Assembly (NCBI GenBank): GCA_032718475.1
Contig: JAUCBJ010007234.1
Location: 26,099-90,098 of the forward strand
Direction of reading: 5' to 3'
Source of the DNA: Nemertoderma westbladi
Taxonomy: Eukaryota > Animalia > Xenacoelomorpha
DNA length: 64,000 nucleotides
Shown: positions 30,001 to 56,345 of the stretch, one piece after another
Layout: every line of letters begins with the position of its first letter
Position numbering within the stretch: position 1 is the stretch's first letter
Notes under the pieces: model-generated
Told to the model about the DNA's origin: nothing
The model's input: the letters and a program-made list of their open reading frames with translations, nothing else
The model's database searches: none
Program-made: the position numbers and the translations under genes

Positions 30001-30100
30001 AGAAAACGATTATAATAAAATTACATAGTAATACATACAGAAATATAAAAATAATAAAATAATATAAAATAATAGAGTCACACACCCACTCCATATGTTG

Positions 30101-31225: not shown

Positions 31226-34200
31226 GTTTAGCTTGGTTCGGAACTTGGGTTGTCCAGCAAAGATGTGCTAGTTCTTTATCGATGAATGTTCCTGTGCTAC
31301 CGGAGTCCAGGAGGGCGTTCACTATATAGCTCTTCTGAGGTCCGTGGACCTGTAACTGGACTACAGGAAATTCTCGGATTCCTATATTGGAAGTTGGAGC
31401 TTTCCAAGATGGTTGTTGATCGGAAGTAGTTAAGGTAAGGTCGCTGTCTGTGTCTTTCTCATACACAAGTGCTCGATACACTGCGGTGGTGTTTATTAGG
31501 TAACAGGATTCGTTTTGGTCGGAGAACTCGTCCGTATAGAATCCTTCCATCTCAGATTGATCAGTGTCGTTCACATCACTGAATTGGACATGTAGTTCGG
31601 ACTCACTTACCTGACTCGGGCTGTTTCGTTCGAATTCCGTGTGCAACAAGATATGATGTTTTGCGCCGCACTTTGCACACCTTGCGTCGGAGTTACAGGT
31701 TCGCCGTTGGTGTCCTCGTCTGAGGCAATTATAACACAACCGCTTATCCCACATGACTTCACGTCTATCCTTTAGTGATTTCCTCAGGAATTTATCACAC
31801 GCATTTAAACGGTGGGGCCCGTCGCACAGCACACATTTCGGCTTGATGTTACTTACTTTAACCTGTGCTATGTGGTGCACACTTGTTCTTTCCTCGGGCT
31901 TTCTCACCTGAATTCTTTTAGGAGACGTAGGAAGGGTTTTTTGTACCGGTTCCCTTCTGTCATTGGGTCGAGACTCGGATTTACTTACCTGATCTTTAGG
32001 CATTTTATTGACATAATAAGATCTGTCAGTGTCTTTCCCGCTGTCCTCTCCTTGAGAAGTTTGGCTTTCACCGTCGTCGGTATAACATACTGGTGTTACC
32101 CTTCTCCTAGAAACGGGTTTCTCACTTACCTTGTTTTCCAATGTCTTCTCTCTGGACTGCCTTAGGAGCTGTAATTTCACTTCTCCATCTAAGAATGACA
32201 TGAGATCAGCCATGGTAGGGTCTCGTCGTCGTTGTTCCATCATATATAACACTTTCTTATCCCAGCGTGTACCTACTCCACCCTTCGGTAAAGCAGAAGC
32301 CACTGCTCTAATAACCATAGCACTCTGATACTCATGAGACTTACCTAGCCAATCTAATTGTCTGCAGATCTCCTGAATTTCATCGGAAAACTCTATAATC
32401 CCGCTGCTAATAAACTTTCGGGGCGCTACCAACTTTGCATACAAATACCCAGCTATGTTATTCCTATTACCATACCTGATGTTTAGTGTATCCCAAACTT
32501 GTCTTAATCCGTCTGGATGTCCAATAAACCTTAACGCCATTAACTTGGGAGATCCTTCCAAGCACTCGATGAGGTATCTAAGTTTTTCTCCATTAGATAG
32601 TACAGAGTTCTGTATATTATCTTTGTAATATTCATTAAAAGGTAACCATTTCATCTCATCTCCATTGAACTTAACGATCTCTCCCACCTTTACCGCTTGC
32701 CGGGCTTCGGTTCTAGCCATTTGACGCGTAAAACTTTCTTGAACCATCGTGTTATTTAATATCGAGTTATCGGTATATAAATTTCTCGGATTATGATCAG
32801 TTCTATAGGGAATGTCATTATCAACAGGTCTATAATTACCCTTAATAGGGTTCACTATAGGAGTTTCTACTTCGCTAGCAGTATATATGCGTGTAGGCTC
32901 CACACCTTGCGCATGCGATACTTCAGACCTAACAGGTTGACACATTGTTACAGAGGGTGGTGGTATACCCCTTTGAGTATTTACTAATTTATCGCGTTCG
33001 AGCGCGATACTTTGCTGCACTTCTTGCAACTCTAGTCTACTTTCCCTTACTGTGCCCTTGAACTGCTGGACAGTCTCCTGCATCTGTCCGAGCAGGATAT
33101 CCATCCCCCGTCGTCTCTCGTCCACCCATTCGACCGCCAAAGCGGGAGTCGCCAACGTTGTAGCGGGCGGACGAGGGACAACGGGCGACAAATCTGGAAT
33201 ATTTCGCTCGGAGTCCAGGGTATGCACTGTCTCATGGACTGTTCTGTTGGGCACAGGTAGCTTAGTGCTGTGCAAAGGGAATTGAGAAGTAGGTTCAGGG
33301 AGTACAGGTGTCTCTACGACCGAAAGGGTAGCTTCGGGAACAGGCCTAATTATTTCAGGCTCATCTACTATAGTAGGGAGTCTCTCTATTGTAATTATTT
33401 GGTCTGTGGGTTCTGTACTACCTACTTTGGTGTTATTTAGTTGCCTTCTAACAGCTGGAGGCAAATCAGGCAATTTCTGCCGGTGGAATGTTCTTTTACG
33501 TCTGCTTAGGCGAGATCGATTTCTTCCGCCTTCAGTGTCGGTGGTATCGCCTTCCTCAGATGATGTATATCCCTGTCTTTTGGGATTAGATCGATTCATC
33601 ATCTGCATATTACTAGCTGTTAACTGTTTATTTATGCAGTCTTGATTCTCCTGAATGTTTTCCAATTCTAATTGGGTGGTTTCTTCAGCCGCTTTCCGTT
33701 CTGCTTCTGCCACTTTTGCCTCTGCCGCTGCCTCTGCCTCTGCCGCTGCCTCTGCCGCTTTTGCCTCTGCCGCTGCCTCTGCCGCTTTTGCCTCTGCCGC
33801 TGCCTCTGCCGCTTTTGCCTTGGCCGCTGCCTCTGCCGCTTTTGCCTTGGCCGCTACCTCTGCCGCTTTTGCGTTGGCCGCTACCTCTGCCGCCTTTGCC
33901 TTGGCCGCTGCCGCCTTTCTTTCTGCTTCTGCAGCTACCACTGCTGCTTTCTTTCTGTCTTCTATGCGTTTTTTCTTTACTTGCTCTTCTTGGACTCGTG
34001 TCAGGCGGAGTTGTTCATCAAATTTGGCCTGATTCGCAGCCCTCATTTCCACATCGATGGCATCCAACACAAGCTTGGTTCCTTCACTATTAGGGCTAAG
34101 TCCCTCTAACCTTCTCCTCAACTCGTCATCACCTAAAAAACGTTGATAGTCTGACAGATAGATGTCAATGGCATCCCTCTTATGCGGTTTCTCTGCTGTC

Positions 34201-34259
34201 ACTTCGCTCTCGGTTGTATCTAGTAGACTGTCTGACAGGTTCTGCTTTGCGTCAGACAT
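31167..34259 (-). CDS. BEL/Pao Gag-protease with Ala/Glu/Lys repeat N-terminus
   Basis: KFNGDEMKWLPF..EKLRYLIECLEG (DUF1759-like); CVLCDGPHRLNAC, CYNCLRRGHQRRTC, CAKCGAKHHILLH knuckles; ALLDSGSTGTFI protease. Confidence 0.9.
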   Translation of the reverse strand: MSDAKQNLSDSLLDTTESEVTAEKPHKRDAIDIYLSDYQRFLGDDELRRRLEGLSPNSEGTKLVLDAIDVEMRAANQAKFDEQLRLTRVQEEQVKKKRIEDRKKAAVVAAEAERKAAAAKAKAAEVAANAKAAEVAAKAKAAEAAAKAKAAEAAAEAKAAEAAAEAKAAEAAAEAEAAAEAKVAEAERKAAEETTQLELENIQENQDCINKQLTASNMQMMNRSNPKRQGYTSSEEGDTTDTEGGRNRSRLSRRKRTFHRQKLPDLPPAVRRQLNNTKVGSTEPTDQIITIERLPTIVDEPEIIRPVPEATLSVVETPVLPEPTSQFPLHSTKLPVPNRTVHETVHTLDSERNIPDLSPVVPRPPATTLATPALAVEWVDERRRGMDILLGQMQETVQQFKGTVRESRLELQEVQQSIALERDKLVNTQRGIPPPSVTMCQPVRSEVSHAQGVEPTRIYTASEVETPIVNPIKGNYRPVDNDIPYRTDHNPRNLYTDNSILNNTMVQESFTRQMARTEARQAVKVGEIVKFNGDEMKWLPFNEYYKDNIQNSVLSNGEKLRYLIECLEGSPKLMALRFIGHPDGLRQVWDTLNIRYGNRNNIAGYLYAKLVAPRKFISSGIIEFSDEIQEICRQLDWLGKSHEYQSAMVIRAVASALPKGGVGTRWDKKVLYMMEQRRRDPTMADLMSFLDGEVKLQLLRQSREKTLENKVSEKPVSRRRVTPVCYTDDGESQTSQGEDSGKDTDRSYYVNKMPKDQVSKSESRPNDRREPVQKTLPTSPKRIQVRKPEERTSVHHIAQVKVSNIKPKCVLCDGPHRLNACDKFLRKSLKDRREVMWDKRLCYNCLRRGHQRRTCNSDARCAKCGAKHHILLHTEFERNSPSQVSESELHVQFSDVNDTDQSEMEGFYTDEFSDQNESCYLINTTAVYRALVYEKDTDSDLTLTTSDQQPSWKAPTSNIGIREFPVVQLQVHGPQKSYIVNALLDSGSTGTFIDKELAHLCWTTQVPNQAKHVRDHAGLEICCGCRLLYR

Positions 34260-35629
34260 GCTTATGTGTACAGTTGAATGTCTACTGCTGTATTACAGTC
34301 TGAGCAAGTCTAGTAACTCAGTATTAACTGCTAGCCTAGTAATTAATTACCGGTACTGCTACTCAGTGTAGCGTGATATATATATAATATATTAGAATAC
34401 CGGTATGCTTATAGTATATATAACTATTATTACAGACTAGGTTTATCACAGAATACCGGTATAATTTTAGCACAAATATATATAAATATATAATAGGCCT
34501 ATCGGAATACCGGTATACAGCTTACTGTTTGTAGTATATATAATTCTAGAATAGAATTAATTACAAGTACCGGTATAATTTCAGCCTAGATTTATAGAAA
34601 TAAGATAATAGGCCTATCGTAAATACCGGTATATCAATTATTTTAGAATAATTGAATTTCTGAACTTTAGGGTTACTTGGTTACTTTAACTTACTTTATT
34701 ACCGTTATTTAAGCAGTAATCCAACTGATATTGAGACCTAATGGTTTTATGGTAGGCCTACTATTTATAAATCGTTAGATTTGATTTATAATGTATTTAT
34801 ACCCGTTTTAATGGGTTTAGTCAATGTTTGAAATAAATGTTATTATTTCTGGGGTAATCACTACACAAAGCGGTGCGCTTTTTAGTGAAGTGTTACGTAT
34901 AGGACACTAAAACAAATAATTCTAATTTACCTAAGTTACTTAATACTACAAATTACGTACAATTCGGGTGAGATTACAATCTCTAAATAAACACAAAAAT
35001 TTACAAAAAAAAAACACAAAATACGAATTTTTAGGGTAATTTTACAAGAAGTCTACAAACCAGCCTAACAAAGGGTTAGATAACCGGTTATTACAACGGA
35101 CAGGGTACTACGGTATTTGAAATAATAAGTAGTAGTAAATACACTGCGTTGTCTAGATAGGAAAATACTACCGCCTGACGACCTATAGCCGTATCGCTAT
35201 AGGTTCTACATTATGTATCACGGAGTGTTCCTACCTAGAAGTTAATAGAGCTAATCGAATGTGCCTATCAACCACTTTACAACACAGATATAATGTCTAC
35301 AATAATTACTTCGGAAAGTACTGTACACTAAACCCTAAATTAGGTACGAGTACTTGTACAACAAATAATCAGTAGTTAAATATACTTGAACAGCTAAAAG
35401 AACCACGGCATCTGCTGGAGTGACCGATGCACAAAATCACCAGTCTTTACCTACGCCGAGCAGCCCGTGTAGTACCGGGGTTAATTTAACTATAGCGGTA
35501 TGTATAACAAACACAATTACTGTAGGAACAAACTTGGGGAATGAATGTTGCGGATAATCGCATAAACTCTGAATAATAAATATTACGCTACGCGTACAAA
35601 CCACTCAAACAAAATACAGACCGAACACT

Positions 35630-36140
35630 GACAGACTACTATCAAGCCTAAACAAACTACGGTATATGCAGACTCCGAAATGATTAGGGAGTATGCGCTC
35701 TAACCCAGTAGGGCGACTTATTCTTTAGTTGGGGGTTTACCTTACAGCGTTCGCTGCCCCTACTGCCTAACCGTACTTAATCGGACAGATGATCTACACA
35801 CGCGGCAATCCGTTCAGACCTAATAATAGCCAGACAACTATCCAGCCTACAAATTATCTAAGTAAAATTATACGCTACCCGTACAGACTTACACAAACAA
35901 AGTACAGACTAAACGATGGCAGACTACTCTCAAGCCTAAATAAACTACAGGACATGCAGACTCCGAAATGATTAGGGAGTATGCGCTCTAACCCAGTAGT
36001 GCGACTTATTCTTTAGTTGGGGGTTTACCTTACAGCGTTCGCTGTCCCTACTGCCTAATCGTACTTAATCGGACAGGTGATCTACACACACTGCAATTCG
36101 TTCGGACTTAACAGCAATCAGACAACAGCTCAGCCTACAA
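35630..36140. repeat. Tandem duplication (~288-bp period) in the BEL A 5' leader
   Basis: gactccgaaatgattagggagtatgcgctc... occurs at 35671 and 35959. Confidence 0.85.
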
Positions 36141-36483
36141 ATCGTCTGTACAATCTGATCAGGCTTACACGCCTTCTGTTCAATACTGGCCTACAAATAA
36201 ATAAAACTTGACAGAAATAAGTAAAATCTCAATAAAAAATCAGGGCGGCCGTTCCCTGATTAAGTACTAAGACCTACCGGTATACAACAATCAAATCAAA
36301 TAATACTAGTGTACTTATACGGAAGTACCGGTTAGGACAGCTAGGCCTACGGAATACAGAAGTACCGGTTCTAGCGGTTGGGCCTACTGACTACTGACCT
36401 ACAGATGTACCGGTTCAGGTTTACCGGTTGACCGGTACTTTCAACTTTATTGCTTACTGCAACAAAGAAGCTATATCCTTTAA

Positions 36484-37688
36484 TGTTCGCGCTTTCAGAC
36501 CTTTGGCAGTTTAACCCACCAAATTAAGATGTCTTCTAGATATTAAATCGGTTTTTAGTCTATGACAAGTATTTGATTCACTACACTAGTCGAAACCAAT
36601 CTGTGCGCGATCATTCACCCGCTGGATATTCCCGGGAGATTGGGTTCGACGGTTTAATTTTATTGCTATGTAACTATGCTATTGCTATGTAGTATTATTC
36701 GACTGACAGTACTATATAATCTCTGACAATATTATTCACCTTCGGTAATATTAACAGTTCCTTTAGGACGTGGCGCTTTATCTATATAAACAGAGTTATG
36801 ACTTAAACTACTCACAACGATCTGGCTTAATTATAATTCACATATATGGCGCATTCTTTAGGAATTGCTTCTTTAACAGACTCACTCATACACAATGCTG
36901 CACAATACTGCACACTAATCTGCCAATCTTCACTGATTTTAGTCACATATAAAAGGAACACAGACTGACTCATGTAGGGTCTATCAAATAACATTAGATT
37001 CACTTCAAACCACTTTAACATAAGTCACAATCGTTTATCTGTAACCCTTCTCTCTTACCTTCGGTATATCAAGAATATTGGGTTTCGGGGTTATTTATCG
37101 TTATTCCAAATATAATAATTCATCAACCATATTATGAAGAACTGACGGTAAATAGCAGTATAAAACAACAATGAAAACACTGATTGTTATGAGTTTGCAA
37201 TGTTTCAGCAGTCAGTATGTATGATCAGTTAGCAGTTAAAGGATATATGTCCTTGTAATTAAACCTACTAGTGTAAGACTAAAAACTGAAACACGGAGGT
37301 GCCAAAAGCCGGTTCTTAGGCTCTGAGCAAAAACATAACACTGAACTACTGAGTTTCTGTATATACCTCCAACACAGAGATAACAAACGCTCTGATTGGT
37401 CAACCTGAACAACGAGAGAACAGAGAAACAAAGAAACGTCGACGTGGCAATATCAGCTGCTAGCCGTCGTCATGGTAGCGACACTGTTTTCAAGAGTATC
37501 GAGCTTTTACGTCACGGAATTACGGATTATGTCCTCTAAAGTACAAATACAGAAGAAATAGCTTTTATGTCCGCTAAAACACCAGTACAGCAAGGACACG
37601 GCCCTTTTATGCCTGGTAAACCAACTACAGAGTATTTTACGGGAAAAATAAGGAAAAATAACCGGACAATTCAGCAAAAGCTTTTACA
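36484..37688 (-). repeat. 5' LTR of BEL element A
   Basis: Direct repeat of 25891-27087. Confidence 0.95.
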
Positions 37689-42142: not shown

Positions 42143-42682
42143 TGTTAGCTTATTCAATCCCGCCAACACCCCATAAAGTTATAAGCCGATAAGCAATATT
42201 GGGAGCCACGAGATTGGGCAATTAACCAACTCGTGCCATCCCAATAAGAGTGGGAAGGAAGCACACAACAAGGGTCAGGGGCCAAACCCGTAACCCAGAG
42301 GAAATAGGTGGAGTGAACGGGAACACTTCAGAGGGCGCCAACAAGGGTATTAACCAATCAGAGGGGGGAAAGGCATCGATTGAGTAGCAATAAGGCCACC
42401 GTGCAATATAACCAATAACCTATTAATCAGTGATTCAGTTATCTCAGTGCAGCAGTGCTAGCGTAGGTTGGTAGTCAATTAGTTTAGTTAGGGGATCACG
42501 GGACTTTAGTTACCGTATCCCACCTTGTACACATTATATCTATATCTATATCCTATGCCCTATTATTATTATACACCGAACTTCAGAACTCAGTTACTTT
42601 CTTTCATCCTTATACACGGCGGGGACGCGTGGACTAAATTACCACACCGGATAAATCGGGATCCCTCCTGGATCCCGTCACA
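42143..42682 (+). repeat. 5' LTR of BEL element B
   Basis: Direct repeat of 55805-56345. CCAAT (~42355), TATA-like (~42405) and TCAGT initiator-like (~42435) motifs. Confidence 0.95.
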
Positions 42683-42763
42683 GTAACTAAATCCGAGGAA
42701 GAAGCCCCAGTTGAACATCAAGAACTGCAGCCTAGCTAGCCGAACCATCAGCCACCAGTTGAG

Positions 42764-45127
42764 ATGAGTGAATCGGGCGAGACACCGACGCGGACCCCGG
42801 ACGAAGATCAAACGATCCGCGAGGCCGCGACCAAGCGATACAGGCCCACGACGCCGGAGCCATCGATAACGGGCGAACCGGAAGTCCAGAACGAGGAGGG
42901 TCTGGAACCCGAAGTCGAGCCAAAGGAAAGGGAGAGCGAGCCGGAGGGAGAAGGAGATGAGTCGACACGGAATGGAGAACGGCGCGCCGATGTCGCCGGC
43001 CAGCTACCGGCCGAGGGCGACGAGCGACCCACCGAAACGGCGACGGTGGGGCCGACGGTGCGACGCCGGACGCGAAGAGACGGAGGAGAGATCGGTACTG
43101 ATGTCGCCGGCCAGCTACAGGCCGAGGGCGACGGATGGCCCACCGGAATGGCGACGGTGGAGCCGCCGGTACGACGTCGAACCTGGAGGGACGGAGGAGA
43201 GGTCGGCGACGAGGACGTCGGGGTCTCCGATCGACTTCGACGGGCTTACATCGCGACCCGGAGACTACTAGAGAAGGCCAGGAAAGGGAAAACGGTAGAC
43301 GAGGTGAGACTGAGAAAGCGACTAGGTGAGTTGGATAGACACTTTAATTATCTAATACGTTTTGGGCAGAGAGAACTAGCCGAAACGAGAGCACGTGAGG
43401 TTGCCGGGGAACTGTTTGAACTATGGGAATGTGGGAGTATGGAACCTAGCGTAGCGTCAGTGTACATAGGGCCATACTTGGTCGATGCCCGGGGAGTAAA
43501 ACCAGTGGGTTGGAGGGGACTCGAAGGGGGCGAATCCGAGGTTAACCCCGAGGATTCGGCCTCGTCGGTCGGAGAAAGCTCCGGGAAGCGGGGGAAAGTT
43601 AGTAGGTCGGGAAGGCGGGGGAAGTCCGTCGTAACCGATAAGTCTGTTACATCCTCCGCGAAAGAAAGAGCGGTGAGAGAAATAGGTGCCGCATACCGTC
43701 TCAGCATGGCAGAGCAAGGTCAGAGAGAAATGGAGAAACGGCTAGAGGAGGGGAGAGTGCGGTTAGAGAGGGAAGCGGCATTGATTAAAGAAACCGGAGA
43801 GAGGGCCGAAAGGGCTTTGAAAAGCCTAAGGGAGTGTGATGAGATAGAGGAAAGGGAGTGTAGGGAGCGTGAGGCGAGAGAGGAAAGGGAACGCAAGGAG
43901 CGTGAGGCAAGGGAGGAAAGGGAACGCAAGGAGCGTGGAAGGGAACGCAAGGAATATGAGGCGAGAGAGGAAAGGGAACGCAAGGAGCGTGAGGCGGAAC
44001 GTAAGGAGTATGAAGCGAGAAGGGAAAAGGAACGCAAGGAGCGCGAAGTGAGACGAAGGGAGAGCATTAAGAGTGCAGCAGAGTCGGCCATCAGGGACAC
44101 CCAGGAGTGTGAGAGGAGACTGGCAGAGGCTGAAAAGGAGCACAAGGAATTAGAGAGACGGCAGAGTGAGTTTGCGGGAAATAGGATTAGACGGGAGCAC
44201 GAGTTGGAATTCGTACGAGCGACGCCGTCTGAAAGCGGGGCCGGCTCGAGTATTTTTGAGGAGCCGGAGGCCGTAGATACATTTATTAATACCCCACTGA
44301 CAGGTACCGCACGACAGACCCAAAACTGGTGCGACCGTACGGGCGGGGGGGGGGGGGGGGGTAATAATAATAATGGTACAGTAGACGTTGTTAATATTGA
44401 TAATACCGTATGGGACAACACTAATCAAACCTTTATTACAGGAAATACTTTGCCTAGTGGTAGTAATTTAAATTTAAATCAGAACAATCCCAATATTAAT
44501 GTAGGAAATAATTCTAATATTGATGTAGTTACGCAAAATAATTCAAATAATCAAAATAATAACCCAAGTTCGAACCTACAAAATAATTTAAATAACGCAG
44601 TTACGCAAAATAATTCGAATAATTTAAATAATGACCTATGCCCGAATTTACAAAATAATTCAGATAACGTAGTCGCGCAGAATAATACAAATGATTTTGT
44701 TTCAAACGAGCAAATTAATTCCGTTTCCAATATGGGTGCTATTAATGTAAACACGTCGGGCCTACATAACCAGGCGGAAGAGGGCCTGGTAGGTCACATA
44801 GTCGGTAGCCAGACGGATGAGGGCCTGGTAGGCCACGTAGATAGTAGACAGGGAGCAGAGGGCCTGGTAGGCCACGTAGTTGGTAGGCAGGGAGTAGAGG
44901 GCCTGGAAGGCCACGTAATAGCAGGGGGAGAGGCGGGGGTGAATAGACCCGACCGCAGTAGGGTTGATGTGTCGACTAGAGAGGTATATAATAGCGGGGA
45001 GAGAGGTAGCGAAGTTAGATGTAGCGAGTGGGGGGGGGGGGGGCTACGAGGACCCCATAACAGAGAGTTAGCGGCGAGAGGGGGGGGGGGGGGGGGCAGG
45101 GAGTGTCCCACAGCCGTCAGCGGATAA
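42764..45127 (+). CDS. BEL B ORF1: N-terminal Gag extension (Glu/Arg coiled coil, Asn-rich and GLVGHV repeats); probably continuous with ORF2
   Basis: 787-aa ORF starting ~80 nt after the LTR. The ORF2 frame is open from the poly-G at ~45080-45096. Confidence 0.8.
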   Translation: MSESGETPTRTPDEDQTIREAATKRYRPTTPEPSITGEPEVQNEEGLEPEVEPKERESEPEGEGDESTRNGERRADVAGQLPAEGDERPTETATVGPTVRRRTRRDGGEIGTDVAGQLQAEGDGWPTGMATVEPPVRRRTWRDGGEVGDEDVGVSDRLRRAYIATRRLLEKARKGKTVDEVRLRKRLGELDRHFNYLIRFGQRELAETRAREVAGELFELWECGSMEPSVASVYIGPYLVDARGVKPVGWRGLEGGESEVNPEDSASSVGESSGKRGKVSRSGRRGKSVVTDKSVTSSAKERAVREIGAAYRLSMAEQGQREMEKRLEEGRVRLEREAALIKETGERAERALKSLRECDEIEERECREREAREERERKEREAREERERKERGRERKEYEAREERERKEREAERKEYEARREKERKEREVRRRESIKSAAESAIRDTQECERRLAEAEKEHKELERRQSEFAGNRIRREHELEFVRATPSESGAGSSIFEEPEAVDTFINTPLTGTARQTQNWCDRTGGGGGGGNNNNGTVDVVNIDNTVWDNTNQTFITGNTLPSGSNLNLNQNNPNINVGNNSNIDVVTQNNSNNQNNNPSSNLQNNLNNAVTQNNSNNLNNDLCPNLQNNSDNVVAQNNTNDFVSNEQINSVSNMGAINVNTSGLHNQAEEGLVGHIVGSQTDEGLVGHVDSRQGAEGLVGHVVGRQGVEGLEGHVIAGGEAGVNRPDRSRVDVSTREVYNSGERGSEVRCSEWGGGGLRGPHNRELAARGGGGGGRECPTAVSG

Positions 45128-45203
45128 TGCAAGGGCCGAAATAGGTAAACCGCAACAACCGGCGACGGAAAGTAACAGGGGGATTGCGGGTATCCCCAGC
45201 GGC

Positions 45204-48200
45204 GTGCGACCGAGCAGAGAGAGACAGGTTGACGTCGCGAGAGGGCGGACGAAGCGTCGAGCCCGATCAGAGGAGGGAAGAAAAACAGTGGGGTTTAACC
45301 GGGAGGTCGATGAGAGATCTCACGAGCGGGAATATTCCACTGATAGGAGAAGAAAGGAAGACAGTAGTAGAAGTATCGCCGCGAACGATAGAAGAGCGAG
45401 GACGGATAGCGAGCCGTCGGTAGTCGAGATGAGAACGGAGAGTCAGTGGGGTCGGACTCCGGGAGATTGCCGTCGCCCCGGAGAGATGCGATCCGGTGAG
45501 ATGCATTACACGCCGAGAGAGGGGTACACGATGTACCGGTACGAAGATGAGGACAGAAGAGAGGGGGGTCGAAGAGAAACTTTCCGACGGAATATACCTG
45601 CCGATCGAGAATACGGTAGCCGCGGGGAGGATTATTCGAGAAGAATAAACTTCGATCCCGAGAGACACATGCAGACTGTAGGACATACTGTAGGCCTTAC
45701 TGCACATACCATAGGCCATATTGAGAGAGGCTATGTAAGCGATAGGATAGCGCGGACGACGGAATTAAGCCCGGAAGTCGCGGAATACATACCGGCGAGT
45801 AGGCCAGAAGCTGATAGGCCTATACCGGTACCAGCACAGCAGTATGACTACAGCATGCAGGGACATAACATATACCCAGGGGAGGGGGGAATTATTGCGG
45901 ATAGGTGCATGGGCCCCAACATATTAACATCAACCCCATTACCAAACATACCGGTGGGGGGGGGGGGACAGGGTGACATTCCCCCATCACAATATCAACA
46001 ATATACCCCGATGGTAGCAAGAACAACGAGACCCTTGGACGAAAACAGGTCGTGTGACACAGATATATGGAGGGGGCCGCTACCCCCGATGACGTACCCA
46101 AGCCAGAGAAAATCAAGAAATAGGACAGACGGAACGCACCAGGCAGGGGAAACTATACAGCACCCGTCGAATCCATTGGAAGCGCAGGCGATAGGGATGG
46201 CCACGTTGATCGATGCTTTGAAAACGAGGATCGAGTTACCACCCGTGGAACCATTCAAGTTCGATGGGAGTAGGCCGGAAGAATATTTGCAGTTTCGGCG
46301 AATGTATAGTAACGAAATACTAACAAAAAACTTGATGCAGGCGGAGTGCCTAAAGTATCTACAAGTGTACACGGGAGGCCCAGCATACGACATCGTGAGG
46401 CAATATCAGGGAATAGAGGGCGGCTTCACGACAGCATGGCGGGCACTGGATAGGGAATACGGGCACCCGGCCAAGATCATCAGGCAGACGCTGAGAGGCA
46501 TAACATCGGGTGGCCTACAGGATAACCCCGTTAGCATTAAGACGTTTGCAAACAAAGTCGAGAAAGCGCTGATCGTGCTGAAGACGCTAGACGCGCCATA
46601 CGAGCTCAACGCGTCCAATAACATCACCACGATAGCGCAGGCACTACCGAACTGGTTGCGCAACAAGTGGAGGAAGATCGCTTTCTCCACTCGAGACAAG
46701 AAGGGTGCGGAACCGGGTTTAGAAGAAATGTCAAACTTCTTAAATTACGAGGCTGAACTAATAACGGACCCAGTCTATAGTGAAGATAGCCTGGGAAAGG
46801 GACCAAAGACGGATCACTACAGGCCGAAACCAGAGCACAATACATCAAACGCATTGCCGAGGCTCAGGCAATCATTGCCATACACAGCGACGCAGGGGAC
46901 TGCAAGTCCACAGGCAAACGAAGATAAGACAACATCATGGAACGGACAGGGGAACAATAACAACATGAATAAACATAACCCCAGTACGTCCAGTAGGCCA
47001 AATCCAGTCAATAAGAATAGTAGGGACTTTGGTACGAATATAACTGCGATACGCAATGCATTGTATAAAGAGGGCTACGACCCAAAGAGCAAATGCCAGT
47101 TACACGCAAATGCGCTTCATAAAACCATGAACTGCAGGTACTGGCAGGCGCTACCGAGGCAAGACCAGATAGATTACGCGTCGAGCAATAAATTCTGCTC
47201 GCGATGTGTGAAGAGTGGACACAAGGCCAGGGAATGCCAAGAGAAGCCGGTCAAGTTTGGCCAAAGGAGAGGCCAAACGATGGCAACGAGCACGGTAGGG
47301 GCGAAGAAGAGAGGCACGGTGTTACTTGGAGTAGTACCGGTGCGAGTGATCGGGGAGGGCAATCGATCAGTAACAACACTAATGCTGGTTGATAGTGGAG
47401 CTGCCTTCACATTAGTCGAGGAATGGGTAGCCGAAGAAATAGGATTGAGAACAAGGCCAAGCAGAATGGCGGTAACAACCATCTCTAGCAAAGATGAGAT
47501 CCTAGAGATGAGGACAGGACGGTGCGCAATTGCAGCAGTGGCACCAGGATGCGATTATGGGGCAACCATCGACCCCATCCAAGTAATAGAGTCAATTAAC
47601 ATCAATGCCAGGCGGCCAACCAACATCGAGGTCGAGCAATACAAATTCCTGGACGACATTGACTTCTCGATCCCAGACGTGGACGTTAGGAAGGTATCCA
47701 TCATAGTAGGAATGGACTGCCCGACGGCCCACGAAAGAATGCAAACGGTCTTCGGCGAAGACAAGCAGAGTGACCCGGTGGCCATATTAACACCATTCGG
47801 GTGGACGCTGAGTGGTCCAATTAAGAGCAAGATACCATTCAGGATGTCGGAGACATCAGGATGCATGTTCGCGGGAACAATGCAGGAAATGGGTGATGAG
47901 GGAGCAGAGGAGCAGCTTAAAAGACTGCTCAGACAAGACTTTGAGGGACTGAAAGAGACCGGGGTCGGGACCTCGGTAGAAGACAAGCAGGCTCTACAAA
48001 GCGTGGAGGAATCGATGACGTGTGATGAGGGGCGGTATACAATAGGAATGGTATGGAAACTACCGAAGATACCGCTACCCGATAATAGAGGGATGGTAAT
48101 CACGAGACTCCGCAAGCTGAAACAAACACTAAAACGGAGCCCCGAGAAGAACGAGTACATTCACAAAACGATTAAGAAGTACGTCGAGAAAGGATGGGCC

Positions 48201-51200
48201 GTGGAGTTACCGGTCGACGAGCCGAACACGGACAGGACATACTACCTGCCACTCCACGTAGCTTTAGACCCAAAGAAAGGTAAACTTAGGATGGTAGTCG
48301 ATGCATCGGCAAAGACCGACGGAAAGTGCTTAAACGACTACCTACTAGAGGGCCCAAACATATACAATTCGGGCATAGAAGTACTACTTAGATTTAGGAA
48401 TGGGAAACACGCCTTCACGTGTGACATAGAAGGCATGTTCAACCAAGTCCGTGTAACAGAGGAAGATAGCGACAGTCAACGCTTCTTATGGTATAACGGC
48501 GAGGAAGAACCGCCTATAGTACCGGCATATAAGATGGTAGTACAAAACATGGGGGCCAAGTCGTCCTCATTTACGACGACTATGGCAGTGAGAGACACGG
48601 TGAAGGGGAAGGAAGATAGATACAGCAGTAGGGCCGTCGATATGATCCGACGCGGCTTCTACGTAGACGACGGTATGGAGTCTGGAAATACGGTTGAGGA
48701 GATACTGGAAACAGGGCGCGAGGTTCGCGACATCCTGAAAGGATCCGGCTTCAACCTGACCAAATTCCAATCCAGTTCAGAAGAATTTATCAAGGCAATA
48801 GAGGACAAGAAACCAGAATCGACCATGGACAACCCTACAACAGCCAAAGGACAGGACATGGCGAATAAGAGAACACAATCTCAGCAAAAGGCATTGGGAA
48901 TCGTGTGGGATAGAGGAACAGACGAACTGAAGTATCAGCTGAGCCAGGAGGGCGCAGACACCCATACGAAGAGGGGTTATGTATCGTATATAGCAAGGAT
49001 ATACGATCCCCTAGGCCTAGCATCCCCATTACTAGTCACGGGGAAACAGATACTCAAGAGAGTATTTAAATTGAAGGATGAGTGGGACGTAGAGGTACCA
49101 GAGGACATCAAGAAACAGTGGAGCAAATGGACAGGAGACTTGGAGAGGATGGGAACATACAACATGCCGCGAGCGTATTTCCCGGACGGGAACATGACGA
49201 ATCTGGACCTACATATGTTCTCCGACGCGTCGTTAGAGGCATACGGGGCGGCACTCTATTTAGTACAACGAGAGGGGCCTCACAAGCCCAGACTAGCCTT
49301 TAGCAAAGCTAAGTCAACGCCGCCAGATTCAGCATCTGTTCCCAAGTTAGAATTGACAGCTGCGAGACTAGGAGTTAGAGCCACAGCCTACCTAGTGGAT
49401 ACAATTCCCAACATAGTGGAGACACACTACTGGACGGACTCCATGGTAGTGCTTGGTTGGCTACACAACGAAAAGACGAGGTACCCGATATTCGTCGCGA
49501 ATAGAGTGGACGAAATAAGGGCGAGCACAGAACTGGAAAGGTGGCACTACTGCCCAACAGACGAGAACCCAGCGGACCTGCTGTCGAGGGGCGTGGAACG
49601 CCACACTTTCTTAAAGAAGGAAGTATTGTGGCAGCATGGGCCACAATTTCTGAGCGATAGAGAGGCCTGGCCGCCGATGAGGAAGGTGGACCCGGGCTCG
49701 GAACCAATATCAGAAGGAGAGGGAGATTCAGAGGGAGAAGAGATATACTCCCAGATGGTGAGGGAGATTAGGGACGTGCAACCAGGAAGGGAACTGTGCG
49801 ACAACCCGACGGATAAACTCCTCAGCTACAGTTCCAGTTGGTATAAGACCAAGAAACTAGTGGCGTACTGGAGAGCCTTTGGGAATTTCCTTGCGGGAGT
49901 CGGCAAGGACAAGAAGACCAGGATAACCATAGATCTGGAAGGAGCGGCCAAGGCAGTGATCCGCTATGAACAACGCAAGAACTACGGCGACGAGGTGGAA
50001 CGTGTCGGTAACCAACAGCACCTCCGACGGGATAGCGAGTTGATCACGCTGTCGCCACAACTCAACGAGGACGGGATTCTAGTAATGAATTCTAGGGTGG
50101 GATATAACAACAGTATAGTCGTGCCACCGAAACCCATCATCATTCCCACAGGATCGCCTATAGTCCACCAGATCATATGGGACTCCCACAAATCGATACT
50201 GCATGGGGGCACCAACCGAACCCTCACAGAGATAAGGAGGACCTATTGGGTCAAACAACTAAGGAAGAAGGTTAAAGCGGTAGTGGGGCAGTGCCAGACC
50301 TGCCGACGAGCGAAGAAGGAACGAGCCGTACAGGAGATGGCGCCACTACCGGCGAGTAGGGTAAGACAGCACGACCCGCCATTTACGCATTGCGGTGTGG
50401 ACATGTTCGGGCCGATAAAGATCAAGGTGATGCGACACACGGAGAAACGCTATGGTATTATCTCCGTATGCAACAATACGCGGGCGGTAGGGATAGAACT
50501 CGCCCAAGATGCAACCGCATCAGCATTCATTAACGCCCTAGAAAGGTTTAGGGACCGCAAAGGTGGGACGATCGCAGTGATATACAGCGACAACGGCACC
50601 AACTTTGTGGGCGCAGAGAGTGAGATGACAGAGGCCTTAGACATCTTGGAGGGAGAAGAAGTCAGGGCGGCCATGAGAAGACGACAAGTGAAGTGGGAGA
50701 GAAGGACGCCGTATGCACCACATACATTAGGATGCGTCGAGAGACTCGTGGGCAGTTCAAAACGTCTAATGACGAAGCTAATGAACACCAACATGGTCAC
50801 TGAGGACGTTTTACGGACAGTACTTGCGAAGTGCGAGGGGATCATTAATAGCAGACCGCTATATCCGGAGAATGATGACCCTGAGTCGTTAGACGTGCTG
50901 ACGCCTAGCCATTTCCTGATGGAAAGGCCAGCGACCATCGATATGCGGGGTGTAGACCCAGATGACATACACTCCCGCCAAAGTTGGAAAGTCGCTAAAG
51001 CAATAAGCGCAGAGTATTGGAGGAGGTGGGTCGAGGAATACCTACCCACGCTCCATAAGCGAAGCAAGTGGAGGAAGCCGAACAGGGAGTTAAGAGAGGG
51101 AGATCTCGTAATCGTTACGGATGATACTATCATCAACAACCAGTGGCGGTTGGCGAGAGTTGTACGCACTTACTCCGATGAGGACGGAAGAGTCCGATCG

Positions 51201-51296
51201 GTAGAAGTGCGAATAGGTGGGAAGATAGGTGCGAAGGACAGAAAAACCTACAGGAGAGCGGTAGGCAAATGCTGTCTCCTAGAAGGGGCACCTTAG
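45204..51296 (+). CDS. BEL/Pao Gag-Pol polyprotein (Gag, knuckles, protease, RT, RNase H, integrase)
   Basis: KFDGSRPEEY; CSRCVKSGHKAREC; LVDSGAAFTL; YYLPLH..KLRMVVDAS; DIEGMF; FYVDD; LHMFSDAS; HYWTDS; CPTDENPADLLSRG; H-H-CQTC; VDMFGP; YSDNGTNF; GCVERL; LTPSHFL; YWRRWVEEYL. Confidence 0.96.
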   Translation: MRPSRERQVDVARGRTKRRARSEEGRKTVGFNREVDERSHEREYSTDRRRKEDSSRSIAANDRRARTDSEPSVVEMRTESQWGRTPGDCRRPGEMRSGEMHYTPREGYTMYRYEDEDRREGGRRETFRRNIPADREYGSRGEDYSRRINFDPERHMQTVGHTVGLTAHTIGHIERGYVSDRIARTTELSPEVAEYIPASRPEADRPIPVPAQQYDYSMQGHNIYPGEGGIIADRCMGPNILTSTPLPNIPVGGGGQGDIPPSQYQQYTPMVARTTRPLDENRSCDTDIWRGPLPPMTYPSQRKSRNRTDGTHQAGETIQHPSNPLEAQAIGMATLIDALKTRIELPPVEPFKFDGSRPEEYLQFRRMYSNEILTKNLMQAECLKYLQVYTGGPAYDIVRQYQGIEGGFTTAWRALDREYGHPAKIIRQTLRGITSGGLQDNPVSIKTFANKVEKALIVLKTLDAPYELNASNNITTIAQALPNWLRNKWRKIAFSTRDKKGAEPGLEEMSNFLNYEAELITDPVYSEDSLGKGPKTDHYRPKPEHNTSNALPRLRQSLPYTATQGTASPQANEDKTTSWNGQGNNNNMNKHNPSTSSRPNPVNKNSRDFGTNITAIRNALYKEGYDPKSKCQLHANALHKTMNCRYWQALPRQDQIDYASSNKFCSRCVKSGHKARECQEKPVKFGQRRGQTMATSTVGAKKRGTVLLGVVPVRVIGEGNRSVTTLMLVDSGAAFTLVEEWVAEEIGLRTRPSRMAVTTISSKDEILEMRTGRCAIAAVAPGCDYGATIDPIQVIESININARRPTNIEVEQYKFLDDIDFSIPDVDVRKVSIIVGMDCPTAHERMQTVFGEDKQSDPVAILTPFGWTLSGPIKSKIPFRMSETSGCMFAGTMQEMGDEGAEEQLKRLLRQDFEGLKETGVGTSVEDKQALQSVEESMTCDEGRYTIGMVWKLPKIPLPDNRGMVITRLRKLKQTLKRSPEKNEYIHKTIKKYVEKGWAVELPVDEPNTDRTYYLPLHVALDPKKGKLRMVVDASAKTDGKCLNDYLLEGPNIYNSGIEVLLRFRNGKHAFTCDIEGMFNQVRVTEEDSDSQRFLWYNGEEEPPIVPAYKMVVQNMGAKSSSFTTTMAVRDTVKGKEDRYSSRAVDMIRRGFYVDDGMESGNTVEEILETGREVRDILKGSGFNLTKFQSSSEEFIKAIEDKKPESTMDNPTTAKGQDMANKRTQSQQKALGIVWDRGTDELKYQLSQEGADTHTKRGYVSYIARIYDPLGLASPLLVTGKQILKRVFKLKDEWDVEVPEDIKKQWSKWTGDLERMGTYNMPRAYFPDGNMTNLDLHMFSDASLEAYGAALYLVQREGPHKPRLAFSKAKSTPPDSASVPKLELTAARLGVRATAYLVDTIPNIVETHYWTDSMVVLGWLHNEKTRYPIFVANRVDEIRASTELERWHYCPTDENPADLLSRGVERHTFLKKEVLWQHGPQFLSDREAWPPMRKVDPGSEPISEGEGDSEGEEIYSQMVREIRDVQPGRELCDNPTDKLLSYSSSWYKTKKLVAYWRAFGNFLAGVGKDKKTRITIDLEGAAKAVIRYEQRKNYGDEVERVGNQQHLRRDSELITLSPQLNEDGILVMNSRVGYNNSIVVPPKPIIIPTGSPIVHQIIWDSHKSILHGGTNRTLTEIRRTYWVKQLRKKVKAVVGQCQTCRRAKKERAVQEMAPLPASRVRQHDPPFTHCGVDMFGPIKIKVMRHTEKRYGIISVCNNTRAVGIELAQDATASAFINALERFRDRKGGTIAVIYSDNGTNFVGAESEMTEALDILEGEEVRAAMRRRQVKWERRTPYAPHTLGCVERLVGSSKRLMTKLMNTNMVTEDVLRTVLAKCEGIINSRPLYPENDDPESLDVLTPSHFLMERPATIDMRGVDPDDIHSRQSWKVAKAISAEYWRRWVEEYLPTLHKRSKWRKPNRELREGDLVIVTDDTIINNQWRLARVVRTYSDEDGRVRSVEVRIGGKIGAKDRKTYRRAVGKCCLLEGAP

Positions 51297-51404
51297 AGTG
51301 GAGTTAGAGTGGAGTTTAGTCGTCCAAGTTTTGGACTGAAGGGGGGTGGGATTGAGGGCGAGACGCCCTTCCCACACAAATAAAATAAAAATAAAATAAA
51401 AAAT

Positions 51405-52055
51405 AGTTAGTTAGTTAGTAGGTACGTAGTGCCTAGAGTTAGTTAGTTAGTAGGTACGTAGTACCTAGAGTTAGTTAGTTAGTTAGTAGGTACGTAGTGC
51501 CTAGAGTTAGAGAGTTAGTAGGTACGTAGTACCTAGAGTTAGTTAGTTAGTAGGTACGTAGTGCCTAGAGTTAGAGAGTTAGTAGGTACGTAGTACCTAG
51601 AGTTAGTTAGTTAGTAGGTACGTAGTGCCTAGAGTTAGAGAGTTAGTAGGTACGTAGTACCTAGAGTTAGTTAGTTAGTAGGTACATAGTGCCTAGAGGG
51701 TTAGTAGGTACGTAGTACCTAGAGTTAGTTAGTTAGTAGGTACGTAGTACCTAGAGTTAGAGAGTTAGTAGGTACGTAGTACCTAGAGTTAGTTAGTTAG
51801 TAGGTACGTAGTACCTAGAGTTAGAGAGTTAGTAGGTACGTAGTACCTAGAGTTAGAGGGTACGTAGTACCGCTAGTTAGAGTTAGAGTTAGAGGGTACG
51901 TAGTACCACCAGTTAGAGTTAGAGTTAGAGGGTATGTGGTACCGCTAGTTAGAGTTAGAGTTAGAGGGTACGTAGTACCGCTAGTTAGAGTTAGAGTTAG
52001 AGGGTACGTAGTACCGTTAGTTAGAGTTAGAGGGTACGTAGTACCATTAGTTAGA
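51405..52055. repeat. Minisatellite between pol and ORF3 (agttagtaggtacgtagtacctag variants)
   Basis: Seen directly; units of ~30-39 bp. Confidence 0.95.
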
Positions 52056-52539
52056 AGAGAGAGAGTAAGAGGTAAAAGGGGTAAATAGGATATAGATATT
52101 AGTTAGCAGTAAGTAGAGTTAGTAGCGAGAGGGGGGCATATGAGTACAGCTGGGTAAATCGTGTGGCCACACGACGTATACTGCTGTACTGCATAGGCCC
52201 ACAAAGTAGGCCAGAATATGGATTAGAGAATAGAATAATCCATAGGCAGTAATAGGTAGTAGGACAGTAGAATTAAAATAAATAGAATAGGGCTGAAAGT
52301 TAGAAATAGTGGCAACACAAGGGAAGTCGTTCTAGAACATAATAAAAGTAACGGACAGAAATTGTAAATTAGGCTCATTTACTAGCTTCAAAATTAATTA
52401 GGTTAAATTTAGGCTAAAAGGCGCAATTAAGTAGAAAGTAGGCCATTATCGAACCGTACGAAACATCTTAATACATCACTCATCTGTATTGCGCCTTGGT
52501 AAGGCACCACCCTGCAGGTGAGCGAGTGTAGTGTTCGGA

Positions 52540-55089
52540 ATGGCGAGTAAGTTGATCAGGAAGAGGAAGGCGGAGTCAGGAGGAAAAGAAATACTGGTGG
52601 ATTTCACCGAAAGACACCTGGAAGAGAAGACGAGAGGATACTACGAGAAGTTGGAAAGGGGTCACGCGGCACGAGCGCTGCAGGACCACTTCCGGGAGAT
52701 GCACGAGCAGCGGCTGGTCGGGACCTACGGAACGCCGTCGCTGGACAACGCGATCTTCCAACACTTCCACTACGTGGTGAAAGGGGACGAGGCGAAGTTC
52801 GGGATTCCGAAGTATCCGAGGGAATCACCGAGGAAGGACTGGAAGAGGTTCATAGAGTCCGTCAACAGGGGAGGATATATGATCCTAGATGACGAGGGAA
52901 CCGTGGAAGACGAGGCGGGTTCGAGACGAGGATCAGCGGGGTCGGCCAGGACCATACTCCTACATTTGGCCGCGCCAAATGGGGATATCTTCCTATTCGA
53001 TTTAGGGACGTATGGGAAGAAGGACGGGCCGAAACTGAGCCGGTTACCGAAAGCGGTACAAGTCTTGGTAAGAGAGAAGTCGACGACGAAAGTGGGATCG
53101 GCGATTCGCGAGGATGCGGAAAGGATCATCGGTCCGGACGCCACCAACCTCCTGGATATGCAGAAGGTCTTTATGGCTATGACGGCACCGGATGGGTTGG
53201 GGCTAGTCGAAAACACAGGTCTATGCGGGGCAGTGGCAATGGGCCAACTATTGGGGCTCGTATGTCACAAACCGATGGACTGGGGGAAGTTTAGGGAAGA
53301 ATACGGAGCAGAACTAGCGAACTCGCTAAAGTGGGGAGCGAGACCGGGAAAGCAGGAGGCATATCAATTTCGCAGAGGAGCGATAAAGGTATATCAGAAG
53401 CGATATATCTTGCAGGAAGACTGGATTATGATAAGTTTGCTTAACTTATTTATGACCGTAGTCATCGAGAGGGAACCAGGAGCATTTCTGTTATCGGGAT
53501 CACCCCTAAGCTACAGGAGAGCCTTTAAAGTGGCCTTTGACGGTCTGGTAGACCACCCGGGGCTGAAGGGCGAGTCGGTGTACTACAACAGCCGACATCT
53601 GGTAGACGGGGAGACAGATACACCGTATCAGAGATGGGAGCAGCTAGAGGCGGACAGACGAGAAGCAAAGCGACTGGAAGAAGTCGCTAGACGGGAGAGG
53701 ATAGAAGCAGAGGAGAGGATAGAGGAGGCCAGGGCACAGAGTTACGGCTTCGAGGAACAGGCGGGCCTAGACGAACTTCATTGGACTTCGTCAGGGAGTT
53801 CGGGGGAGTCTCTAGGGCGAGAATTGGGATGGATGGTGGGATCGCCGAAACAGTCGACGTCGGGGTTGCAAACGATGCCCATACCAGCGGGCGCCGAGGG
53901 CGACCAACTGCCAAGGAAGCTAATGGAGCTAGAGGGATGGAGAGCTACGGGCGAGAGCCAAGGCGGGAAGGGACATAGTGGATCCATCGGGATACCGGGA
54001 TTAGAGACACTACCAGAAGAGGAGGACGACGACGACGAGTTCGGAGAGATGCCGCCCATCGAGAGGATAGGCCACTCGGACACGGACTGGGTTGGCGGAA
54101 GGGTGGTGACGGCCAGTGGGGCGAGGGCCTTCTGGAACAGATCCGGCAAGCGGACCTGGGTGCACGAGGAGCCGGCGGTGGATTTCGCGGGGAGCACCAT
54201 CAGGTTGGGCGAGCAACCGGGGACGGCACCACGGATAGTATTCGGGGAGACGATGCCCGAGAGGGGCGGAGAGATCGGCGTAAACAGGGAGACCAACGTA
54301 GAGAAGTTCGCCTACCAGCGACTCCACAGACCGCGGAGATCGCTTGGGACGAAAGACGAGGTGGGACGGGAGACATTGGTACTCGGCTGCGACTACTGTG
54401 GGAGACGGACCCATCGGGAGGGCAGCTGCCTATACCGGTTCCAAAAGGGAACCTTTTGTCTCTACTGCAGAGAACCAAGTCACAGGATGGGGGCGTGTCC
54501 ACGGTTGCATAACCGATGTCCAAAGTGCCACTTTCGGGGACACTACGGGCGCGAGTGCGACTGGATGAGCGACGAGGAGAAGTTCACAAGATTCGAGGAG
54601 TGGGCCGACGTCGGGGCCATGACGCGCCAGTGCATGAAGGCCCAAGAGTTCAAGTGGGGTTTCTTCCTTATAAACCAGGAGACCCACATGGAAATCATAA
54701 AGCGAAGGTTACCGTTTACCTATCAAGAGGTAGCAACGGCGGCGTCGTACGCTGGAGTGATGAACACGCAAAGGTATCTGGACAGGTGGACGCCAGAGAA
54801 CCGAAGGGAGTTTAGGGATTTCTTGGCGGAGCACGTACCAAAGGCAATGAAAATTATCCTATGGGACGCCACTAGAGGGAGACAACCGGGCCATTCTGAG
54901 GGGCCACCGGCGAAGCGATATCGGGCACTAATAATACCAGCGCCCAAGGAGCCAACGACCGGGATTAGCAAGGAAGTGGCGGCGAAGGTCCGAAAGCAGA
55001 AAGCGGATGATGCCAGAGGAACGGTGATAACCAAGAAACGGCCCAGGGAAGAGGATGCCAGGGGGAACTACCCCCGGAGGAACAGATAG
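52540..55089 (+). CDS. BEL B accessory ORF3: DEDDy (WRN/EXD2/RNase D-like) 3'-5' exonuclease domain plus three CCHC zinc knuckles
   Basis: ExoI MILDDEG; LLHLAAPNGDIFLFDL; ExoII LVREKSTTKVGSAIREDAERI; NLLDM; ExoIII-like YQKRYILQED; knuckles CDYCGRRTHREGSC, CLYCREPSHRMGAC, CPKCHFRGHYGREC. ~850 aa, intact, inside the LTRs. Confidence 0.75.
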   Translation: MASKLIRKRKAESGGKEILVDFTERHLEEKTRGYYEKLERGHAARALQDHFREMHEQRLVGTYGTPSLDNAIFQHFHYVVKGDEAKFGIPKYPRESPRKDWKRFIESVNRGGYMILDDEGTVEDEAGSRRGSAGSARTILLHLAAPNGDIFLFDLGTYGKKDGPKLSRLPKAVQVLVREKSTTKVGSAIREDAERIIGPDATNLLDMQKVFMAMTAPDGLGLVENTGLCGAVAMGQLLGLVCHKPMDWGKFREEYGAELANSLKWGARPGKQEAYQFRRGAIKVYQKRYILQEDWIMISLLNLFMTVVIEREPGAFLLSGSPLSYRRAFKVAFDGLVDHPGLKGESVYYNSRHLVDGETDTPYQRWEQLEADRREAKRLEEVARRERIEAEERIEEARAQSYGFEEQAGLDELHWTSSGSSGESLGRELGWMVGSPKQSTSGLQTMPIPAGAEGDQLPRKLMELEGWRATGESQGGKGHSGSIGIPGLETLPEEEDDDDEFGEMPPIERIGHSDTDWVGGRVVTASGARAFWNRSGKRTWVHEEPAVDFAGSTIRLGEQPGTAPRIVFGETMPERGGEIGVNRETNVEKFAYQRLHRPRRSLGTKDEVGRETLVLGCDYCGRRTHREGSCLYRFQKGTFCLYCREPSHRMGACPRLHNRCPKCHFRGHYGRECDWMSDEEKFTRFEEWADVGAMTRQCMKAQEFKWGFFLINQETHMEIIKRRLPFTYQEVATAASYAGVMNTQRYLDRWTPENRREFRDFLAEHVPKAMKIILWDATRGRQPGHSEGPPAKRYRALIIPAPKEPTTGISKEVAAKVRKQKADDARGTVITKKRPREEDARGNYPRRNR

Positions 55090-55804
55090 GTTCCCAGAGT
55101 CGAGGGAGAGAGACTGGGACTTAGACGTGGTACGCCTGGCAGGCGCCGCGCGGGATGTACGAACTATTAAGTACAAATTCAATTAATGCAAATAATCATA
55201 TAAGTGCAATTTGTATGTACGTACGTAGTAATTAGTAATCTAGTAAAATACATACGTTTGGAGTAAGTACTATAGTCATACAACCTTTCTCAATTAGCTA
55301 CTGGGACTGGGGGATAACTGACTATGGCACTATGGACGAGACAACTGACAATTTCACGCTTCTTGAGTGCGACGGCACGAGAGGGGGGGGGAGGTTCGTC
55401 AGGAGAGATAAAAATAGTCAAAGTGGAGTTGAGGATCGGAGTAAGAGTGCGAAGTGCCAAGAGAGTGCGAACGCAATTCTAGTGTGGGGGGGGGAGAATA
55501 AGAGGCTGAGTGAGGGACGAGGAGGTCCGGGGGTATGAGAGAGTTAGGGTGAGAGTGGAGGGGAGATAGGGCGAAAGTGTTGGGGAAACAAAAGTCGCGT
55601 GAAGAGGTGAGCGCGATCGGCCCGACATGAGACGCCAGGTACACAGGGTAGCGTTATCATACCCATAAGGGGCGGTCTGGAAAGCCGGCTCCTAGAGAAA
55701 AGAATTCCACCCCACACCCGATACTAGATCGGGATCCAGCGGGATTGTAACGCACTTTTTTGGTTGATGCTATCTTCTTACCGGGAAGATAGCATGGGGG
55801 GGAG

Positions 55805-56345
55805 TGTTAGCTTATTCAATCCCGCCAACACCCCATAAAGTTATAAGCCGATAAGCAATATTGGGAGCCACGAGATTGGGTGATAACCAATTCGTGCCAT
55901 CCCAATGAGAATGGGAAGGAGAACCACACCACAAGGGTCAGGGGCCAAACCCCTAACCCAGAGGAAATAGGTGGAGTGAACGGGAACACTTCAGAGGGCG
56001 CCAACAAGGGTATTAGCCAATCAGAGGGGGGAAAGGCATCGATTGAGTAGCAATAAGGCCACCGTGCAATATAACCAATAACCTATTAATCAGTGATTCA
56101 GTTATCTCAGTGCAGCAGTGCTAGCGTAGGTTGGTAGTCAATTAGTTTAGTTAGGGGATCACGGGACTTTAGTTACCGTATCCCGCCTTGTACACATTAT
56201 ATCTATATCTATATCCTATGCCCTATTATTATTATACACCGAACTTCAGAACTCAGTTACTTTCTTTCATCCTTATACACGGCGGGGACGCGTGGACTAA
56301 ATTACCACACCGGATAAATCGGGATCCCTCCTGGATCCCGTCACA
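55805..56345 (+). repeat. 3' LTR of BEL element B
   Basis: Follows the PPT; ends gtcaca. Confidence 0.95.

Follow-up and report, generated by a model that had tools for sequence, protein, structure and literature searches.

A self-complementary primer site and an exonuclease-like third gene in a BEL/Pao retrotransposon of Nemertoderma westbladi: one system or two modules?

Does a retrotransposon that combines a primer site matching its own RNA with a gene for an exonuclease-like protein depend on the second for the working of the first? The question is raised by a long terminal repeat (LTR) retrotransposon, here termed element B, which occupies positions 42143-56345 of the window, a stretch of 64,000 nucleotides (nt) of DNA from Nemertoderma westbladi (assembly GCA_032718475.1, contig JAUCBJ010007234.1, positions 26,099 to 90,098; all coordinates below are those of the window). 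The original prediction proposed that the product of the third open reading frame (ORF3) trims the element RNA back to a duplex at the primer site and so makes the reverse-transcription primer. The analysis presented here makes a different reading fairly probable, namely that element B carries two independent modules, a self-complementary primer site and an accessory ORF3 that would act as an RNA-binding helper. ORF3 is probably not the primer-maker, since relatives of element B carry either feature without the other. As judged from sequence comparisons, putative self-priming goes with the Pol lineage, and ORF3 is a separate accessory module, because complements to the primer site occur in Pol relatives without ORF3, and ORF3 occurs together with tRNA-type primer sites, often in a catalytically dead form. 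Element B is the only element here with both features, and it therefore serves as a test case for their interaction.

The primer site and its complement in the LTR

Element B is a BEL/Pao LTR retrotransposon, with a polypurine tract, a DUF1759 Gag, the order protease-reverse transcriptase-RNase H-integrase (PR-RT-RH-IN), and Peptidase_A17 and DUF5641 regions. Its leader begins with GTAACTAAA at 42683, directly after the LTR, and does not start with TGG. The exact reverse complement of GTAACTAAA lies within the 5' LTR at 42505-42513 and again at 56168-56176, in a register that pairs the 3' C of the complement with the first base past the LTR. Shuffling the LTR by dinucleotides gives a complement of 9 nt in the same register in 15 of 3000 trials, and three further pairs beyond a one-base bulge give a 12-pair duplex of -12.3 kcal/mol. 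The claim of a non-tRNA primer site with a complement in the element's own LTR is thus borne out, as is the claimed absence of AATAAA from the LTR, which lacks ATTAAA as well. The presence of the complement in both LTRs and the lack of a canonical poly(A) signal are the features of this region that favor trimming by ORF3. Promoter-like motifs suggest an RNA start 60-90 nt upstream of the complement, which would make the complement internal to the RNA, and its predicted pairing with the primer site reaches 0.89-0.92 in four folded segments ending at 42760. A version built by splicing amounts to 11 nt in element B, with weak splice sites and one base off register, and no in-register spliced complement longer than 7 nt was found. 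In an intron-free form, element B fits the pattern of the self-complementary Pol relatives, namely the junction ACA|GT together with a primer ending in AC.

These relatives were obtained by a scan with an alignment of Pol from the nearest matches of element B, which yielded 19 loci that are probably animal DNA inside bacterial bins. None of the 13 readable leaders starts with TGG, and 10 of the 12 loci with LTR and leader visible contain an LTR complement of 11-13 nt, each reached in 0-5 of 300 shuffled leaders (the complements of L123 and L127 are not significant). The complement is contiguous in one locus and is joined from the two sides of a GT-AG intron (76-1116 nt) in nine (L121, L124, L125, L126, L128, L130, L131, L135, and L138). 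A poly(A) signal lies 8-34 nt past the primer end in 7 of the 10 self-complementary relatives, an arrangement that suits a primer at the RNA 3' end and, to that extent, trimming by ORF3. Against trimming, the same priming geometry occurs without ORF3 in these 10 of 12 relatives. A scan of 18 of the 19 loci with the ORF3 profile gave no match, fewer than 800 nt separate pol from the 3' LTR wherever the 3' end is visible, and both L130 (2184 aa) and L131 (1950 aa) have single intact gag-pol frames and lack ORF3. The expectation that autonomous self-complementary elements would carry ORF3 accordingly fails in this set. An apparent extra reading frame is present in the leader of L128 (4200-4950), upstream of gag.

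The second self-complementary element of the window, element A, repeats the geometry with a 12-nt complement that is reached in 1 of 3000 shuffles. The original description of element A as non-autonomous, with the same primer geometry and no recognizable exonuclease, holds: it is defective, with no match to reverse transcriptase (RT), integrase, or exonuclease. Given the self-complementary relatives without ORF3, element A has no evident need for ORF3 in trans. Its Gag is only 21% identical to that of element B, and it belongs to a different family. Like those relatives, element A counts against ORF3 as the trimmer.

ORF3 and its tRNA-primed relatives

ORF3 has no Pfam match and no single-sequence match in the PDB, and neither word-index protein searches nor viral contigs contained a relative. 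A full HMMER search with ORF3 recovered 54 proteins with a common N-terminal domain and three CCHC zinc knuckles. The profile of this family matches EXD2 (E 2.8e-12), trypanosome RNase D, WRN, Egalitarian, and Mut-7, and a profile built without the ORF3 of element B scores that protein at E 1.5e-19. An alignment-based AlphaFold model has a mean pLDDT of 64, with values of 83-93 over much of the domain (a single-sequence fold of the exonuclease domain gave a pLDDT of 33), and a structure search with the model finds the same proteins as the profile search. By profile and model, ORF3 is predicted to have a DEDD fold of the EXD2/WRN/Egalitarian type, and its original description as exonuclease-like stands. 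Of the catalytic set D-x-E, D, Y-x3-D, the translated sequence keeps the first three acidic residues and the Tyr (Table 1); Glu occupies the position of the last Asp, as in 4 of 58 homologues, and the full set is kept in 31 of 58. An acidic residue at all four positions, and a fold that matches true 3'-5' exoribonucleases including the CCHC-bearing RNase D, speak for ORF3 as a trimmer, and the replacement of the last Asp may speak against it. Selection on the ORF3 protein is suggested by related contigs, in which 14 of the 20 ORF3 differences among the variants listed are synonymous (two low-depth contigs that cover element B patchily, with the primer region outside the coverage). A sequence resembling a splice acceptor, at about 52510-52517, precedes the ORF3 start by 22 nt.

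Scanning metagenomes for the knuckle motif gave 120 loci, 80 of them with flanks, and 66 of these 80 match the ORF3 profile. In many of them ORF3 sits downstream of a BEL pol, as in element B. The junction between LTR and leader can be read in 22 of the 66 (the rest are cut short, have host flank only, or are ambiguous, as L034 and L051), and the primer site starts with TGG in all 22. It is of the tRNA-Lys type in 20; that of L061 starts with TGGTCC, which we take to be of the tRNA-Tyr type. Sixteen of these loci match over 10-18 nt the Lys site printed in PMC8775094, and an 11-nt Lys site is that used by Drosophila Gypsy according to PMC1635307. The predicted co-occurrence of ORF3 with non-tRNA primer sites is therefore contradicted in every readable locus. 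The nuclease site was scored in 17 tRNA-primed loci, of which nine keep all four acidic residues and eight have lost the site within open frames (L015, L047, and L027 have only part of ORF3 in view). The coexistence of ORF3 with tRNA-type sites throughout, and its catalytic death in 8 of 17 loci, argue against a primer-making role. The tRNA-Lys-primed ORF3 elements include two sister subclades, one with four acidic residues and the other with at most one, and the reading frames are open in both.

A side finding that appears to be new is a tRNA-Lys-like sequence ahead of the polypurine tract in relatives that carry ORF3. Of 44 ORF3 loci tried, 30 gave a row (the tract is miscalled in some), and 12 of the 30 (L009, L031, L041, L044, L045, L047, L066, L072, L075, L077, L078, and L079) contain, on the sense strand, a copy of the 3' end of tRNA-Lys, matching 13-16 of 18 positions, 34-160 nt upstream of the tract (0-1 of 200 shuffles). 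The motif of L079 folds as an acceptor-plus-T-arm minihelix, and Rfam does not call the motif. Its sequence suggests a possible tRNA mimic bound by ORF3. The motif was also considered as a self-encoded primer trimmed by ORF3, an idea that was rejected because the primer site does not follow changes in the motif (as in L041 and L078) and because the motif is strongest in the nuclease-dead subclade, the nuclease site being dead in all eight scored loci that bear it. The weak 18-mer of this kind in element B (Table 1) is possibly a relic that arrived with ORF3. T-arm-like hairpins, judged by eye, are present in the live-looking ORF3 subclade.

Weighing the explanations

With self-priming and ORF3 as separate modules, the element RNA would fold to bring 42505-42513 into a duplex with the primer site, and a predicted cut by the element's own RNase H, on the 3' side of the terminal C, would free a 3'-OH at the U5 edge by analogy with Tf1. 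As the likely primer, the complement in the 5' LTR is mildly preferred to its 3' counterpart or a short RNA made separately. A subgenomic RNA would serve for the production of ORF3, which might bind element RNA for export, localization, or protection from silencing, as do catalytically dispensable relatives of its fold; an ORF3 that retains its acidic residues may also trim RNA ends.

Several observations weigh against this two-module reading. Element B sits on a long branch in the Pol tree as well as in the ORF3 tree (quick and unrooted), where it falls between the two groups, and none of the relatives compared is close to it. Its duplex of 9 plus 3 pairs is shorter than the 11-13 nt of the relatives, and the predicted pairing falls to 0.0 in 6 of 8 folded segments ending at 42700; since the result shifts with the end of the folded segment, folding neither proves nor excludes the pairing. 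The ORF3 of element B keeps its acidic residues, and the function given to it is drawn by analogy. Finally, the tRNA-primed set is mostly one Pol clade with many shared record prefixes, so that its 22 loci perhaps represent three independent lineages.

The placement of element B is affected by the same long branch, which leaves identity and path length as the basis for its group assignment. Its Pol is 36-39% identical to the relatives in the self-complementary group and at most 39% identical to any match found, the nearest being fish, echinoderm, cnidarian, and nemertean elements, and its RT is 26-31% identical to that of the ORF3 group. The subgroup is presumably Sinbad/Suzu-like. The ORF3 of element B is unplaced in its quick unrooted tree, and it was probably acquired by recombination with tRNA-primed ORF3 elements or is shared with them by descent.

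The alternative that survives best, judged unlikely on balance, takes the 3' LTR copy, or else a short LTR transcript made separately, as the source of the primer, with host nucleases or RNase H maturing it and ORF3 uninvolved. It draws on the short distance from primer end to poly(A) signal in 7 of the 10 relatives and on the internal position of the complement, unlike that of Tf1 and Tj1 at the predicted RNA 5' end, and it is compatible with introns kept in LTR DNA, which should need only an unspliced copied R, so that either copy could be the spliced primer. For the same reason the kept introns were rejected as proof that the 5' copy is used, as a spliced 3' copy and an unspliced 5' copy would fit equally. 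This origin of the primer is opposed by the lack of a nearby canonical signal in elements B and A (572 nt away in A), by the ability of the 5' copy to pair locally in the predicted junction, and by the lack of precedent in the literature examined. There is only a slight chance that the match in element B is a relic or a coincidence and that the primer is a host RNA or tRNA fragment: its nine contiguous nucleotides, their frequency in the shuffles, and the 24 copies across element B of a 7-mer matching the self-primer would allow it, whereas an exact fit in register to the first base of the leader, the ACA|GT junction and AC end common to relatives with different letters, and the 12-nt geometry of element A in the same window oppose it. 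On the evidence given above, it is very improbable that ORF3 makes the primer in the lineage of element B only, by trimming from the RNA 3' end (or from a nick further downstream) as far as the duplex, and just as improbable that element B is a chimera of a self-priming BEL/Pao backbone and the exonuclease-knuckle gene of tRNA-primed elements in which such trimming replaces the splice-and-cut route of the relatives.

The central link of the original prediction is therefore unsupported, and two of the three findings that it had named as telling against it were made, namely exonuclease-bearing BEL elements with tRNA-type sites and autonomous self-complementary elements without ORF3. The two halves of the proposed system remain useful separately.

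Known systems and other features of the window

Among known systems, the Ty3/gypsy elements Tf1, Tf2, and Tj1 have a primer site complementary to their own LTR RNA, in which a cut frees the 3'-OH, as described in PMC4600332, which also cites a title on the RNase H requirement. Element B resembles them in the absence of a tRNA site, in a primer site matching its own LTR, and in the register at the U5 edge, and differs in its BEL/Pao Pol (theirs is a Ty3/gypsy chromovirus Pol), in the additional ORF3, and in a complement that appears internal and comprises 9 nt and, past a bulge, 3 more (across an intron in the relatives). The ICTV profile of Belpaoviridae (PMC8742986) describes host-tRNA priming and an env-like third gene. 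Element B conforms to the family in its Gag, domain order, Peptidase_A17, DUF5641, and TGT...ACA LTRs, and lacks both a host-tRNA primer site and an env-like third gene. The signature of tRNA-independent priming, seen with different letters in ten further elements, contradicts the family description. The main text of a BEL/Pao survey (PMC3118150) has no mention of primer, primer binding site (PBS), or exonuclease, PMC554778 has no mention of tRNA, PBS, or exonuclease, and the entries listed by a literature search include no paper on BEL/Pao self-priming or on an ORF3 of this kind.

The bdelloid rotifer elements Juno and Vesta carry a DEDDy exonuclease as ORF3 after pol, for which PMC5408684 suggests roles in RNA 3'-end processing, silencing, or RNA binding. 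They share with element B a DEDD-type 3'-5' exonuclease as the third ORF downstream of pol. Element B differs in its BEL/Pao carrier and probably in a domain closest to EXD2/WRN/Egalitarian that is fused to three CCHC knuckles, and the ORF3 family here further differs in the coexistence of active-looking and dead subclades. The rotifer ORF3s raise, without answering, the question of what retrotransposon-borne exonucleases do, and a widespread BEL/Pao third gene, in which an EXD2-type domain and three knuckles come in live-looking and dead subclades, offers a natural comparison for it. Trypanosoma RNase D, EXD2, Egalitarian, and Nibbler/Mut-7 share the fold of ORF3, and RNase D also joins it to a CCHC knuckle; these are cellular proteins with 12-17% identity, to which ORF3 adds a long linker and three knuckles. 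The nematode BEL elements Cer7 and Cer13 reportedly encode an RNase D-like exonuclease and env, and Cer7 is said to have a self-encoded tRNA-like primer, a lead on which a literature search turned up nothing; element B differs in the absence of env.

The features of elements B and A are collected in Table 1.

Table 1. Positions of annotated features of elements B and A in the window.
Feature	Position	Strand	Remarks
5' LTR	42143..42682	+	540 bp, TGT...ACA
Candidate self-primer, 9-nt primer-site complement	42505..42513	+	Ends AC, as in 11/12 elements with such a match
Predicted hairpin, end of U5	42657..42677	+	Five bases upstream of primer site
Primer binding site, non-tRNA	42683..42694	+	9 perfect pairs + 3 past bulge
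ORF1	42764..45127	+	N-terminal part of Gag-Pol region; low complexity, coiled coil; no Pfam match
ORF2	45072..51296	+	BEL/Pao Gag (DUF1759, knuckle), protease, RT (YVDD), RNase H (Peptidase_A17 region), integrase, DUF5641
Tandem array, 32-36 nt units	51405..52055	+	Between pol and ORF3; 14 copies of 7-nt match to self-primer
ORF3, 849 aa	52540..55089	+	Predicted DEDD-fold domain, acidic/disordered linker, three CCHC knuckles, helical tail
EXD2/WRN-type exonuclease domain (predicted)	52834..53470	+	D117, E119, D192, Y289 kept; E293 replaces last Asp
Three CCHC zinc knuckles of ORF3	54388..54558	+	
Weak tRNA-Lys 3'-end-like 18-mer	55620..55637	+	13 of 18, ends CCA; 7/1000 shuffles; ORF3-less control reaches 12 of 18
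Polypurine tract	55796..55804	+	
3' LTR	55805..56345	+	541 bp; holds second complement copy at 56168-56176
Element A, defective BEL/Pao	25891..37688	-	1.2-kb LTRs, 5-bp target duplication; Gag; no RT/integrase match
Element A primer site	36472..36483	-	12-nt complement at 37236-37247

The gag-pol region of element B is read in two frames, with the overlap of ORF1 and ORF2 at runs of G near 45030-45100, and catalytic motifs, those of RNase H included, are recognizable in the ORF2 translation. The LTR pair is 97.6% identical, and 12 of its 13 differences are concentrated in 135 bp (42219-42353). Element B has no target-site duplication, the flanks 42138-42142 and 56346-56350 being different, and from this and the clustered LTR differences, recombination between two insertions may have produced the copy. 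The tandem array extends over 650 bp, and its units are palindromic.

Elsewhere in the window, a decayed DNA polymerase B-type gene and an endonuclease VII-like knuckle (weak Pfam matches) lie to the right of element B at 56346-57728, and the polymerase gene is presumably Polinton-like. The stretches 37848-39230, 40279-40794, and 20148-22418 comprise two more integrase fragments and one non-LTR reverse transcriptase ORF.

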